From NCBI GenBank assembly GCA_964016885.1, contig OZ024742.1, positions 303,242,001 through 303,306,000 of the forward strand: a stretch of DNA of 64,000 nucleotides, in the 5' to 3' direction. The notes beneath the pieces were generated by a model. That model did no database searches. It saw only the letters and a program-made list of their open reading frames with translations, and was not told where the DNA came from. Each line of letters starts with the position of its first letter. Position 1 is the stretch's first letter. The translations under genes were made by a program, and so were the position numbers. The DNA comes from Eledone cirrhosa (taxonomy: Eukaryota). Below, one piece after another: positions 736 to 63,049 of the stretch.

Positions 736-1190
736 CAGAGGTTATATTTAATTTGTTGGGATTCAACAGGCTTAAACATTTTTATAACTGATATAAAGCA
801 CTCAATAGTTTAGTGGAGTAAATACACAATATATTAATAAATAGAAACTATATTTATAAAACCATATTTATTTTATTATATATATTTCAAGGGCAACCAA
901 TACAAAGTTATGATTGAGTATGCAAATGAGTGTCCGAAATGAATTTCGAACACTCATTTGCATACTCAATCATAACTTTGTATTACCCTCAATACAATAT
1001 TATCTCCACTATCCAGGAACCTCTAACCGTTAAAGTTGTCTTTTTTCCGGGTATGTCAATATTTATTTATAAAACAAATCTGCATTTTATCTGATGAAAG
1101 CGCACCATAATTTGCCTTGGTTGCCCTTGAAATATATATAATAAAATAAATATGGTTTTATAAATATAGTTTCTATTTATTAATATATTG
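736..1190. mobile_element. Head-to-head (fold-back) PLE 3'-terminal fragment, family E, flanked by (TA)n
   Basis: About 830-900 is the reverse complement of about 1118-1190. The left arm (736-900, minus) matches the tail of the Hydra-like element at 32390-32540. An internal hairpin pairs 899-932 with 950-984. Confidence 0.75.
1084..1147 (+). ncRNA. Type I hammerhead ribozyme (family E)
   Basis: attttat-CTGATGA-AAG..CTT-GAAA-TATATA-TA-ataaaat. Stem I has 7 bp and stem III is palindromic (dimer-type). Confidence 0.75.
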
Positions 1191-1342
1191 TATATATATA
1201 TATGTGAAGTAATTCCATTGGAAAAGTCCAGGAAAAAAGAGTGCTCTATGTAGGCAACAGAGCTTAATTATTATATATATATATATATATATATATATAT
1301 ATATATATATATATATATATATATATATATATATATATATAT

Positions 1343-2060
1343 ATGAATGAAAAATAGAGGGAGAAACGGGACTGTCCATCATCAGTGATCTTCTGACTAT
1401 CATCGATATTTCTTCGCATTAAAGACCAGATACCTCAAAATCAGTGCGGGCAATAACTAAAATAAGTTATTGGGACAAAACGAATTGGGTGGAGAAAGAG
1501 GGACAGTAAACAAACAAAAGTAGTAATGCAATGTAAAGAGAGGAAATGAGTTCGACCAAATCAACGACGAGAAGACGGCAGACGCGTCCGAAACCTGCGA
1601 AATGTGAGCAAGAAAAGGATTTCACACAGGTCAGACGGGGTGAAGTGAGAGAGGAGGAGCACTCACTCTCTGCTGCACCCCCTGTCTAACTTCCTCCCGT
1701 CTGACCTGTGTGAAATCCTTTTCTTATTCACATTTCGCAGGGATCGGACGCGTCTGCCGTCTTCTCGTCGTTCATTTGGTCCAACTCATGTTCACACGTA
1801 TCATTGACTTGTCTCTCATTTTCTCTCTTTACGTTGTATTACTACTTTTGTTTGTTTATTGTCCCTCTTTCTCCACCCAATTCACTTTGTCCCAATAACT
1901 TATTTTAGTTATAGCTCGCACTGATTTTGAGGTATCTGGTCTTTAATGCGAAGAAATATCGATGATAGTCAGAAGATCACTGATGATGGACAGTCCCGTT
2001 TCTCGCTCTATTTTTCATTCATATATATCAGACTCGCAACAACGCAGCACGCTATTTATA
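1343..2060. mobile_element. Head-to-head pair of non-coding family F repeat between (TA)n tracts
   Basis: 1343-1645 is an imperfect reverse complement of about 1690-2022. Homologous to 59341-59871 (shared blocks cttcctcccgtYtgacctgtgYgaaatc and gcaacaacgcagcacgc). Confidence 0.7.
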
Positions 2061-3049
2061 TATATATATATATATATATATATATATGAACATAATTAAA
2101 CATTACATGTATGAAAAAGAAGCTAAACAAATCCACAGAGTCGTTTCGATCGTGTTACCGATTAAACAATCTCACCTAGCAGGATATCATTAAGTATTTC
2201 CTATAGCAAGATATAGAATTTTTGGTATAAATATCTGCTGTCAAAATATAGCATAGAAGAAGAAAATGTTAAAAGATAATTCATAATTCATACGTTGTCT
2301 TGAGGAAAACGAACGTCAGAATTTTAAATGAAGATGCGATACTATATTACATTGAATATTACAAGAAGTGGTCTAACCTGCTGACTGGCGAATTATTTCT
2401 GAACAAAGTGAGATAGCATGTTAAACATGAAGTTGCAAGCAGAGGCATTTATAACTAATTTGAATGAGAAATGAACTTCAACTCACTGACATGTATGTAG
2501 TAATGTAGGCACTTGTCAAATCATAGGTATGCATTTCGAGTCTTCCGCTTTCACTTTGTGTATATCAAGATATAGTGTTCAGTATATACAACCACATAAA
2601 TACATACAGACATACACACATTTAAATATACACACACGTTACTTCAATATAAAATGAACTCAGACCGTTTCCAACCTCTCTTTCGACTGGTAACAAGCAA
2701 AAGACACACTTCGTTATATGCTGATTAAAACCTAAGAAAGGTAAACTAGACTTAACTATGTCAATATTTTCAACATTTACATCACAGAGAAGTTCGTCCA
2801 CCATGGACATTTGGGGGTTGACACTAATAAAAGGCAATATGCGAAGCAGTGACCTCACTGGCCGAAACCTTATTAAAATGTCATTGCAATTCTAACAGTC
2901 GAAAGGAAAGATTTCAAAAACTGTTCCTGATCAATTACATATCTATAAATGTGCATGTGTATTTTAATGATACATCTACATGTGATGCCACAATAGATGT
3001 TCTGCAGCCTATATGTATGCATCAACACGTAATTTCTGGTAGAGTTGTT

Positions 3050-4880
3050 GGCGCACTGTAGTGACATACTGCGTTTCTCGAAATCTCTCCCAGAGTAAGG
3101 AAAGAGAATGATAGATTGGAAGTCAGAAAGAGATATAGAGGAAGAACTGTAGAAAAGTCTTAAAAGCACAAAAGCACAAAAGTCTTTTTAACAACCTTCC
3201 TCAATAAATGCAGCTTTAGGTAGTCCTCCAGAAATTTAGTAGATGAAATTATAGTAACATACATACACATTTCAACAGTTGCGGCAGTTATCAATAACTG
3301 TTGTAGAATAAAAGATTTCTGGATCAAAATATATTGCTAGGCATATGCTATTTAACAATTGTAGTAACATTGGATACTACACCAAAGTATTTTGATCTGC
3401 ACAGTCTACAAATTCGGAAGTAATCATTATAGCTGCACATTCTGCTACCTACCTCATTTTACATCAACAGCTGCTATAGAATTATATCCAAGGCATAAGC
3501 AGATATAGGAAAATATATCCTAGGCACTAATGGATACAGAAAGCTCAGAAAACTACTTAAAAAAAAAAGAAATCATAATCAGACACAAAGATATATCCAG
3601 TTACCTCTTTTACTTCAAATCTTATTAGAAAGTGTAAAGCCAGTGTGGAATGTTCAAATGATTATCATAAATGTGTGAAATCCTGTTGCAGATCTTTGAT
3701 ACCATGTCAACCTAGGACAAAATAGTCTCAAAGAATATTTTTTGTTGTGATTCAATTTGGTGGGACTATTTATGGCTCCGGTCTTATTATTTCTTCTGTC
3801 CCAACTTCTCTCTTTACTAATCATACTATGGTTTTTGCTTTACTTTCTTCTTTGTTTAATAATCCTGCTACTGATTGCAAACACAGCTAAACAGTGTTAT
3901 TTTGATGATTAGAATCTACACAGTTTGAAACAACAAGGTTGCTGCTAAAGCTGGTTATTATTGAAGAGAATAAATCTACATGAAGGGTTCAGGTGTTGAG
4001 GACATCTGGCGATAATTATAAGAAATGTCTGGGTTGGATATTTTCAAATAAATTCCTATACCGTTAATAGATGCTTATTCTCTACTAAATATTGATCAGA
4101 TGGTTGAGGATATGGCTCAATATAATGTCTACAGTACACTTAGCCTACGACGTGGTTAACACGTAGGGCAGCCAAAAGAAGAAGAGTAACCGTACACTGT
4201 ATTTGAGGCTGATCATCACTTGTACCAATTTCAATGAATTCTATTTGCAATCATAAGCTGCGTCGTTAGCTTTCAGTGTATAAGTAATGACATTATTGAA
4301 AAATAACTTCCAGCCACCTTTGCAAATATCAGTAATTGTTTGCGTTTATAATCAGAGTGATCATGGTCATAACTTAAAGAAATTCTTAGATGTAGTGAAT
4401 AAGTAAAACCCTACTTTAAACAAAGGAAAGTCCACTCCCTTCCTAAAGCTAATCATCTAGTTGACTACACGCTGGATTTCAGTATCAGAACTACACAATA
4501 AAATCACAAGGAAACGAACAATCAGAACGATACCATAGAATCATTTGAAGAACGATATAATTGGTCTTGAGCAGTTTAGAATGGGAAATAGTTCTTGACG
4601 ATTCACTGCACTGAATTCGTTCACTACTCTCATTTTCAACAAATTGCACTCAAGGTGAATGTAGTTAGGTCTATCAGAACAAATATCCTAAGCAGGTCGT
4701 CTACTCTTTCATAGCTGCCATTTCTGTCTAGCAATATGTTCTTGAAGAATCAGAACCACCAAAGTAAATATGGCGCTTTAACGGAGGAAGTGGAACTGTT
4801 GAATCTGACACCTCAGTTTGTGTTAATCAGGCTCTCTGGAGGTCAAGACTCTATTCGGGTAATGTCTCATCAAAACTAGT
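3050..4880 (+). mobile_element. Highly decayed Ty3/Gypsy LTR-retrotransposon pol remnant (RT and integrase C-terminal region)
   Basis: Frameshifted translation gives DAYSLLNIDQMVEDMAQYNVYSTLSLRRG..PYTVFEADHHLYQF..DHGHNLKKFL..TLNK (Gypsy RT) and WEIVLDDSLH*IRSLL..EEVELL (integrase tail). Many stops; boundaries approximate. Confidence 0.7.
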
Positions 4881-62160: not shown

Positions 62161-62161
62161 A

Positions 62162-62842
62162 GAACAAAAGGGCAACGATGGTTGCTAAACACTGTACGGC
62201 TAAAATTTGGGATGTTTGTTTACAAACAAACCGATCATTATAATAAATGTTCGGTAAATCCATACGTACATATATATATGTGTGCATGTATGTATATATA
62301 TACATACTACTGTACGTCTGTATACATATATGTATGTACGTATACGTACTTATATTTAAGTAACAGCCGTACTAAGAGTGAGAAATGAAATTTCGTTTCA
62401 TTTTTTCCATTTATCGTTTTCGGTGCGCCCGGTCGATTAACTCACTCGATATGCAAATTAGGCTGCTCAGCCGTTAATATGCATAAGGAAAGTATATACT
62501 TTCAGACGTTCAATCATCTGGCAGGAAGGTATACTGTGCTGACGATAGCTAATAAGCTGGAAACTAGTACATCGTTCCTTTGTCAGTGTTGAACAAAAGG
62601 GCACCGATGGTTGCTAAACATTTTACGGCTTTATTCGGGATGATTGTTTACAAACAAACCCAGCATTATAATAAATGTTCGGTAAATCCATACGTACATA
62701 TATATATGTGTGCATGTATGTATATGTATACATACTACTGTACGTCTGTATACATATATGAATGTACGTATACATACTTATATTTAAGTAACAGGCGTAC
62801 TAAGAGTGAGAAATGAAATTTCGTTTCATTTTTTCCATTTAT
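62162..62842 (+). mobile_element. 429-bp retrozyme-like tandem repeat, about 1.6 monomers
   Basis: gaacaaaagggca at 62162 and 62591; hammerhead in the unit; ends in (TA)n. Confidence 0.78.
62523..62579 (+). ncRNA. Type I hammerhead
   Basis: agga..actgtg-CTGACGA-TAGCT-aata-AGCTG-GAAA-CTAG-TA-catcgt-tcct; palindromic helix III, bulged helix I. Confidence 0.75.
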
Positions 62843-62991
62843 ATATATATATATATATATAGTATATTAGGGAGAGGATCAGGGGTGTATAACACTCCAC
62901 TTATCCAACAGGCAGTATAAGGTTAGCTCGATGTCTGAGGACAGAGCCGTGATATAATCAACAACAAAGAACGCCTATAGCATATGCATAT

Positions 62992-63049
62992 CTTTACTTG
63001 CTAACATTGTTTCATCCGCACTATAAGTGGGACTCATCAGAGCATAAAG
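62992..63049 (-). ncRNA. Type I hammerhead in the 3' region of an element continuing beyond the window
   Basis: cttta-tgct-CTGATGA-GTCC-CACT-tat-AGTG-c-GGAT-GAAA-CA-a-TG-TT-agca-ag-taaag. Confidence 0.78.

Follow-up and report, generated by a model that had tools for sequence, protein, structure and literature searches.

What has placed hammerhead ribozymes so densely in one stretch of an animal genome, and by which enzymes were their carriers copied? These questions are raised by G000:C3:303242001-303306000, a 64-kb stretch of the 3.0-Gb assembly of Eledone cirrhosa (referred to in its whole length as the window), which has a GC content of 33% and is dense in (TA)n tracts. It contains short repeated monomers that lack an open reading frame (ORF) as well as coding Penelope-like elements (PLEs). 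Our reading, to which a probability of about 0.8 is assigned, is that six ORF-less closed units of 319-591 bp, with one predicted hammerhead each, are retrozymes without long terminal repeats (non-LTR retrozymes) copied by the PLE reverse transcriptase-endonuclease. The assignment to this class is based on the closed ORF-less units, two fixed 3' ends, random 5' truncation, one type of end per arm, and multi-unit arms, and the reading also leans on the young coding PLEs present in the genome. Coral, mussel, and axolotl are known to harbour non-LTR retrozymes and their circular RNAs, and PLEs have been suggested as the helpers (Cervera & de la Pena 2020, PMC7229834). The families presented here are likely new members of that known class, probably from a new host group, for which the PLE footprint is now quantified.

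Monomer families

A preliminary description of the window, made from the sequence alone, had listed five ORF-less families with periods of 315, 429, 543, 556, and 591 bp and one ribozyme per monomer. The periods of 591, 543/544, 556, and 429 bp were verified, but the "315" unit measured ~318-319 bp. The single core per monomer and the lack of ORFs were borne out (the longest ATG frames have 21-75 codons), and a sixth family of 485 bp (F485), which had not been counted as a monomer family, was added (Table 1). The five families measured have a GC content of 0.34-0.42. A full-unit search of the genome, as had been suggested for copy number and breakpoints, returned 436 candidate loci for F591, 2761 for F544, 1682 for F556, 2692 for F429, 2995 for F315, and 2383 for F485; 40 candidates were scored for each family except F485, and 3' ends were found to be fixed and 5' ends scattered. 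F591 diverges by 0.30% between loci, and the two F556 arms in the window are 100% identical across their overlap.

Diverged sister families exist for F591 (76% identity), F556 (65%, period ~544), and F315 (71-78%), at L161:1229-1781, L162 and L299-L313, L292:6543-7266, and L150, which implies that the genome has more retrozyme lineages than the window shows. F429 forms arrays of at least eight units at three loci (L103, L105, and L106). In sequencing runs under four organism codes F591 was seen at ~98-99% identity (window 56400-59400), and run X1 covered only F591 in that region. A self-closing F591 contig of 620-621 nucleotides (nt) in two runs was rejected as evidence of a circle, since tandem DNA yields the same contig.

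Insertion footprint

For the footprint, 195 loci were pooled, 41 overlapping duplicates were dropped, and 152 of the remaining 154 were scored; 3' ends were scored in the hammerhead sense and assigned to a site when within 10 nt of it. It was observed that 219 of 246 scorable 3' ends lie at two family-specific internal sites, A and B, and that 201 of 246 run into TA-rich sequence. Head-to-head, two-armed insertions make up 98 of the 152. Both ends are classifiable in 77 of them, which divide into 74 A+B, 2 A+A, and 1 B+B, where chance would give A+B in about half (P about 5e-19 for 74/77); the other 21 have one or both ends elsewhere or off the locus. The PLE integration signature that had been proposed for the monomers, with 3' ends in (TA)n and frequent head-to-head inversion, is thus upheld.

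Downstream of the predicted cut, site A follows at a distance of 80-218 nt and site B at 169-285 nt; they are separated by a tail of 24-166 nt. No clustering of 5' ends at the cut was seen, as 9 of 247 fall within 5 nt of it compared with 6.3 expected. Arms often exceed one unit and continue straight across the cut site, and 13 of 33 F591 arms reach at least two units in a sample picked by full-unit match. Of the 12 start sites, six coincide with words that rank in the top 15% of their unit for TA pairing, but no such word is present at F485 site B, so that primer pairing would be at most partial.

Two fixed 3' ends, a tail, 5' truncation, and an inverted arm together make up the PLE "tail" footprint, and because of this match the monomers are very likely inserted by PLE enzymes. 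A PLE protein, probably a dimer, would nick both strands of a (TA)n tract; reverse transcription (RT) would begin at internal sites of the RNA, A for one strand and B for the other; and two truncated cDNAs, templated by one sequence variant per insertion, would be joined head-to-head. Classical LINE-1 twin priming (LINE, long interspersed nuclear element) was rejected, as the outer end of one arm does not abut the inner end of the other.

The monomers might instead be minisatellites, or passengers of LINEs or of rolling-circle DNA elements, with no tie to PLE enzymes. DNA-level duplication is visible in long arrays and homology to PLE ends was not found, as such an origin would have it, but it is at odds with the fixed 3' and variable 5' ends, the A+B inverted arms, the (TA)n targets, and the dispersal over many chromosomes without poly(A). 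The arrangement is moreover the same as in the PLEs of PMC8557442 and in the window's coding PLEs, and this explanation is considered hardly credible.

Independence from coding elements

Half of the window's hammerhead cores (14 of 28) belong to the ends of coding PLEs, in agreement with the earlier statement that some cores sit in pseudo-LTRs (pLTRs) of such elements. The monomers could by the same token be ordinary pLTRs that were truncated and lie apart from the ORFs of their coding PLEs. A set of 135 full-unit-match loci, reduced to 112 by removal of 23 overlapping duplicates, was therefore probed with 10 PLE ORF fragments from the window. A PLE-ORF match within 1.5 kb of the monomer was found at 13 loci, and an ORF running in the same sense into a monomer at none of the 112. 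As full-unit queries favour long copies, the ORF test was repeated for F544 and F315 with a short probe just upstream of the 3' end. ORF-fed arms were again absent from the loci retrieved (0/24 for F544, 0/28 for F315), and arms longer than one unit occurred in 14 of 24 and 11 of 28, respectively. Constant attachment to a PLE ORF, which the preliminary description had set as the mark of ordinary pLTRs, was hence encountered in 0 of 112 and 0 of 52 loci.

In addition, the unit is preceded by another copy of itself, up to 5.2 units in F591, 4.3 in F544, and 20 in F485 (sampled F315 arms reach 1.9 at most). An origin as truncated pLTRs is accordingly very improbable, and the data support that the monomers are independent ORF-less elements. 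A fixed 5' end or ORF junction at "542-591", indicated by F591 matches, was rejected, because the locus alignments continue upstream as monomer.

Hammerhead census and ribozyme folds

The census comprised all CTGANGA words and variant words followed by GAAA (152 rows, 40 canonical), which were read by hand; it carries no null model. It yielded 28 cores from ~16 families, in line with the ~28 cores and ~15 families first proposed; 7 of the 28 are weak or damaged and the other 21 well formed. The ORF-less closed monomers contain ten cores (two each in F591, F544, F556, and F315, one each in F429 and F485). Those in coding-PLE ends belong to NepA (5), NepB (2), C (2), D (3), the PLE-F family (1), and G (1), and four have no assigned family. 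A strict type I descriptor gave 11 matches in the window and 0-1 in each of 10 block shuffles, and a tuned descriptor gave 13 matches and none in 10 of 10 shuffles; a very relaxed descriptor, which overlaps its shuffles below a score of 20, served as a lead only.

No hammerhead was found by an Rfam scan of the window among the 150 listed of 203 matches, where microsatellite matches to miRNA models swamped the scan, or by a scan of the 544-bp F544 dimer at E<=10. The motifs of the window thus seem to escape curated models. When the tuned descriptor was applied to 20 arbitrary 10-kb stretches of the genome, 15 motifs were returned (0-1 in 5 shuffles). The hammerhead density of the window (13 per 64 kb) is ~2.7 times that of this small 200-kb sample, which agrees with the dense landscape claimed for it, but the richness is genome-wide and not confined to the window. 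By rough extrapolation from 15 per 200 kb, descriptor-passing hammerheads could number about 200,000 in the genome, a large load, of which the Rfam models detected none among the listed window matches. More hammerhead families, absent from the window, were seen in L281, L282, L287, L295, and L298, and L282 has another of the U3-A8 type.

Each monomer carries one predicted type I hammerhead. In constrained folding, F591 and F544 fold as a hammerhead within ~1 kcal/mol of the minimum (for F544, -14.3 versus a minimum free energy of -15.3 kcal/mol). Constrained folds are quoted for these two families; the automatic fold took wrong registers for the Neptune-like cores, F315, and F556. The circular folds of the monomers have z values of -2.4 to -8.3. 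The 76%-identical relative of F591 shows almost no change in stem I, the U3-A8 core, or stem II, while the extension of stem II drifts. The F556 core, doubtful by itself, is supported by a 65%-identical sister family (1856 candidates). There, 18 of 20 aligned sequences retain the U3-A8 core, and core, stem II closure, and stem III are kept, with a stem II insert shorter by 41 nt and A-U in place of a G-U pair in stem III.

Circle or linear multimer as template

The alleles of single insertions bear on the RNA that was copied. In F556, divergence amounts to 0.79% within arms (93/11821) and 0.75% across arms (85/11266), compared with 2.88% between loci (16025/556779). Where a position is present in two copies, 104 of the 112 alleles that also occur at other loci are carried by every copy of the insertion; of the private alleles, 71 occur in one copy and 10 in every copy. 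In F556, F544, and F591, some private alleles are fixed in both arms of an insertion. F591 (0.15% within arm, 0.11% across arms, 0.30% between loci) and F544 (1.32%, 1.06%, and 1.59%) point in the same direction more weakly, and the old families F429 and F315 are uninformative on the template. The use of one sequence variant as template per insertion would fit a circle and equally a young, homogeneous donor array. We give an even chance to an RNA circle, cut and ligated by the hammerhead, as the template, and a chance slightly under one half to an uncut multimeric transcript.

Mobility could thus be driven by PLEs without any circle, with uncut read-through of genomic multimers as template and the hammerhead as a largely dispensable pLTR relic, which we regard as a serious possibility that falls somewhat short of probable. 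The 20-unit F485 array speaks for it: a four-change haplotype recurs in its units 8, 14, and 18, which indicates DNA-level growth and long linear donors. Long arrays were for the same reason rejected as proof of rolling-circle copying; the F485 array may be a retrozyme turning into a satellite. Further points in its favour are the mixture of two alleles beside a homopolymer in 4 of 27 multi-copy F544 insertions, the spread of F506 (a repeat described below) with the same footprint and no complete hammerhead, and the dominance of unprocessed RNA as substrate in PMC11167929. The 5' ends that do not cluster at the cut fit as well, but a circle predicts the same. On the other hand, hammerhead cores are selectively kept across 24-35% divergence, 5' truncation should shorten arrays in every generation yet F591 arms of at least two units persist, and the retrozymes of mussel, coral, and axolotl yield abundant circles (PMC7229834).

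Part of this evidence also weighs against the retrozyme reading itself, namely, with regard to a single monomeric circle, the mixed F544 alleles, the recurring F485 haplotype, the dispersal of F506, and the low share of alleles fixed per insertion in F429 (31 of 223 shared alleles; an old family). To these may be added that stem I of F556 is the weakest, with two unbroken pairs by eye, and that A9U occurs in ~10 of 40 F556 copies. The hammerhead region shows no clear reduction in variability within families relative to the remainder of the unit, and the monomers share with the window's coding-PLE ends only microsatellite-like words among the matches listed (nhmmer, monomer-vs-monomer). From the literature, 8 of 9 Xenopus retrozyme dimers failed to cleave and 1 of 9 cleaved (10.64898/2026.07.22.740005), and hammerhead mutants left in vitro PLE insertion unblocked (PMC11167929).

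The families may even record rolling-circle target-primed reverse transcription of ribozyme-made circles, in which a PLE dimer would cut both strands of a (TA)n tract and fire one reverse transcriptase from each of sites A and B on the circle, each going round it more than once, although we consider this rather unlikely. Were it true, the asymmetry of the PLE transposition complex could be read directly from the genome in the A+B rule, and recognition of passengers without homology to their helper would go through structure or TA-pairing start words. One complex could at times carry two RNAs, as at the F429/PLE-F joint, and F591 with its 0.3% divergence would form a ready test system together with the young PLE G.

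So far, the mobility of animal retrozymes has been argued from co-occurrence and pLTR homology. Six families with a PLE mechanistic signature and no detectable PLE homology add support of another kind. That the two sites are paired almost strictly, one per arm, narrows the possible models of PLE integration, a step left open by the 2024 in vitro work (PMC11167929), and the very young F591 together with near-intact young coding PLEs makes the question of circle versus linear template testable.

Coding Penelope-like elements and the search for a helper

Two Neptune-like and several Hydra-like coding PLEs are present in the window (Table 1). These clade labels are provisional and come from motifs read by eye (PMC8557442). 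By the same comparison, C, D, E, F, and G seem to have DKT and RWK-like motifs, a CxCX5C linker, a C-terminal GIY-YIG, and a (TA)n target. The closest named relative of the Neptune-like ORF is an Octopus vulgaris protein with 67% identity, which is in keeping with an octopus host but no proof of one, as such elements can pass between species. Four fetched copies of PLE G (L268-L271) are 94-99% identical, and a 770-codon open frame is found in one of them; PLE G is a candidate helper for F591. Assignment of a helper by homology failed, as no similarity of the monomers to the window's coding-PLE ends, among the matches listed, or to one full PLE G unit was found beyond microsatellite-like words.

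At 62161/62162, the 5' end of F429 joins a truncated PLE-F arm directly, head-to-head. Elsewhere this position often holds PLE-F's own inverted hammerhead arm (7 of 20 loci, 5 of 5 longer stretches). The joint is possibly one insertion from two different RNAs, but a later deletion between nested insertions would give the same joint, and it is treated as a lead only. A possible second mixed joint places F544 beside an F506-like arm in L177. The layout of an inverted hammerhead arm and an ORF arm is shared by PLE-F copies at L157:4623-7541 and in L156, L158-L160, L137, L140, and L145. The copies in L157 and L158 have a joint in common, and the ORF arm ends without a hammerhead upstream of its 3' end.

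Other repeats

No complete hammerhead was found in 15 copies of F506, in which CTGATGA is conserved. Its footprint indicates that no canonical hammerhead is needed for such an insertion. A ~60-nt segment ending in GAAGATCACTGATGA is kept between F506 and its 68%-identical relative and could be an unrecognised RNA motif. A short interspersed repeat of ~200 bp is very abundant, with 35 matches in the 200-kb sample, and an AT-rich tandem repeat of ~110 bp (49893-50851) lies on the 3' side of PLE fragment E.

Table 1. Features of the window, with positions counted from its first nucleotide (the F485 array lies outside the window)
Feature	Position	Strand	Remarks
F591, 1.63 units, ORF-less 591-bp monomer	56646..57606	-	3' end in (TA)n
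F591 U3-A8 hammerheads	56888-56975, 57479-57566	-	long stem II hairpin extension
F544, 2.35 units and inverted 0.29-unit arm (59031-59187)	57753..59187	-	canonical cores 57925-58005, 58469-58549
F556 left arm	18131..18792	-	U3-A8 core starts 18523, long stem II insertion
F556 right arm, 1.4 units	20160..20935	+	core 20619; predicted cut after ~20732
F429, 1.59 units	62162..62842	+	core 62533-62575; 5' end head-to-head with truncated coding PLE-F
F315, period ~319, head-to-head arms	28569..29297	.	cores 28697-28738 (-), 29091-29132 (+)
F485, head-to-head truncated arms	17116..17545	.	core 17270-17354 (+)
F485 20-core tandem array	G000:C1:382892600-382902400 (L272)		ends at site A in (TA)n
F506 (period ~515), ORF-less-looking permuted monomer	59342..59878	+	same two-end footprint; 4022 candidates
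68%-identical relative of F506	1345-2057
NepA, Neptune-like coding PLE, head-to-head	51780..56532	.	hammerheads 51933-51977 (-), 56273-56317 (+)
NepA truncated copies	~9390-11250, 47230-48069	.	cores 9582, 11018, 47427
NepB, second Neptune-like family	15957..16974	+	core 16693 (A6C); second copy 46143-47141, core 46896
Hydra-like coding PLE fragment C, inverted ends	29441..32540	.	cores 29481-29546 (-), 32345-32410 (+)
End related to PLE C	702-1198	.	core 1084-1147
Hydra-like coding PLE D, pLTR-ORF-pLTR	33987..41057	+	cores 36150-36216, 40962-41028
Damaged solo end of PLE D	19414-19598
Hydra-like coding PLE-F, 5'-truncated	60236..62161	-	own hammerhead end in family of core 32599
End of young coding Hydra-like PLE G	62862..63080	-	core 62999-63044; unit 4.63-4.71 kb
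Minimal hammerhead, no family assigned	19336..19371	+	descriptor matches
Weak hammerhead in small inverted insertion (8948-9080), no family assigned	8978..9018	-
Minimal hammerhead, 2-bp stem I, no family assigned	45385..45420	-	similar motif in locus L158
~200-bp repeat	12441-12874, 14939-15151, 15709-15912, 19875-19943, 21778-21978, 25500-25667, 33071-33298, 44457-44537
Two further (TA)n-associated families, inverted arms	5808-6237, 35607-36025; 8339-8653, 33657-33981, 38750-38877		no hammerhead noted
Core starts 1-10	1091+, 9013-, 9582-, 11018+, 16693+, 17277+, 18523-, 19340+, 19485+, 20619+		hand reading
Core starts 11-20	28734-, 29095+, 29538-, 32353+, 32599+, 36160+, 40972+, 45416-, 46896+, 47427-		hand reading
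Core starts 21-28	51972-, 56278+, 56970-, 57561-, 57998-, 58542-, 62539+, 63040-		hand reading
Weak or damaged cores	9013; 16693; 19485; 32599		A6C (16693); GAAA lost (19485); stem I lost in this copy (32599)
Weak or damaged cores, continued	36160; 45416 and 46896		GAAG (36160); 2-bp stem I (45416, 46896)

Comparison with known systems

A literature search that covered few subscription journals returned no description of cephalopod retrozymes (PMC7229834, PMC7761336, and two supplements of PMC4209133 were word-searched; the supplement of PMC7229834, not among them, may list further species) and no published count of A+B end pairing. Features that the preliminary description had set apart as unusual have precedents. 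Monomers of 319-591 bp fall inside the consensus range of 51-972 bp given in a preprint (Li, Clavereau & Pollet 2026, 10.64898/2026.07.22.740005), and the U3-A8 core has already been described in Schistosoma PLEs (Cervera & de la Pena 2014, PMC4209133). The idea of animal retrozymes as PLE passengers is in print as well (PMC7229834), the preprint arguing from co-occurrence and pLTR homology that retrozymes are non-autonomous PLEs.

Like metazoan non-LTR retrozymes, the families consist of ORF-less tandem units of published size, from dimers to long multimers, with one type I hammerhead each, low GC, self-paired circular folds, and co-occurring PLEs. The units are mostly larger than those of invertebrate retrozymes (170-400 nt, PMC7229834). 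In Xenopus, the link to PLEs was made through pLTR homology (24 of 57 families), whereas here it is made through the insertion footprint and two coupled RT start sites. The hammerheads resemble the minimal and variant ones of PLEs (PMC4209133) in their palindromic short stem III, an unpaired base before stem II, and the U3-A8 variant, but F591, F556, and F485 have 50-83 nt between the core halves, compared with a helix II of 7-8 bp in PMC4209133.

With endonuclease-positive PLEs (Craig et al. 2021, PMC8557442; Frangieh et al. 2024, PMC11167929) the monomers share 5' truncation, partial tandems, the inverted 5' arm, a one-end tail, and (TA)n targets, of which the tail, the inverted 5' arms, and the targets are general PLE features (PMC8557442). 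They differ in lacking an ORF and in having tails of 24-166 nt instead of 30-40. The tail of the anole PLE extends from one internal RT start site to the other, both of them downstream of the hammerhead, a position which the start sites of the monomers share, and its protein, a predicted dimer, cuts and extends both strands; no difference in start site between strands was reported in that in vitro work (PMC11167929). The anole element starts at a site without target homology, whereas half of the monomer sites rank among the top 15% of TA-pairing words. Finally, the Chlamys elements of green algae (MRC1-type, PMC8557442) are likewise ORF-less, non-autonomous PLE passengers in multicopy head-to-tail arrangement and form the closest match for the hammerhead-less F506; they generally resemble their autonomous partner at the 3' end, in contrast to the monomers, for which no such partner was found.

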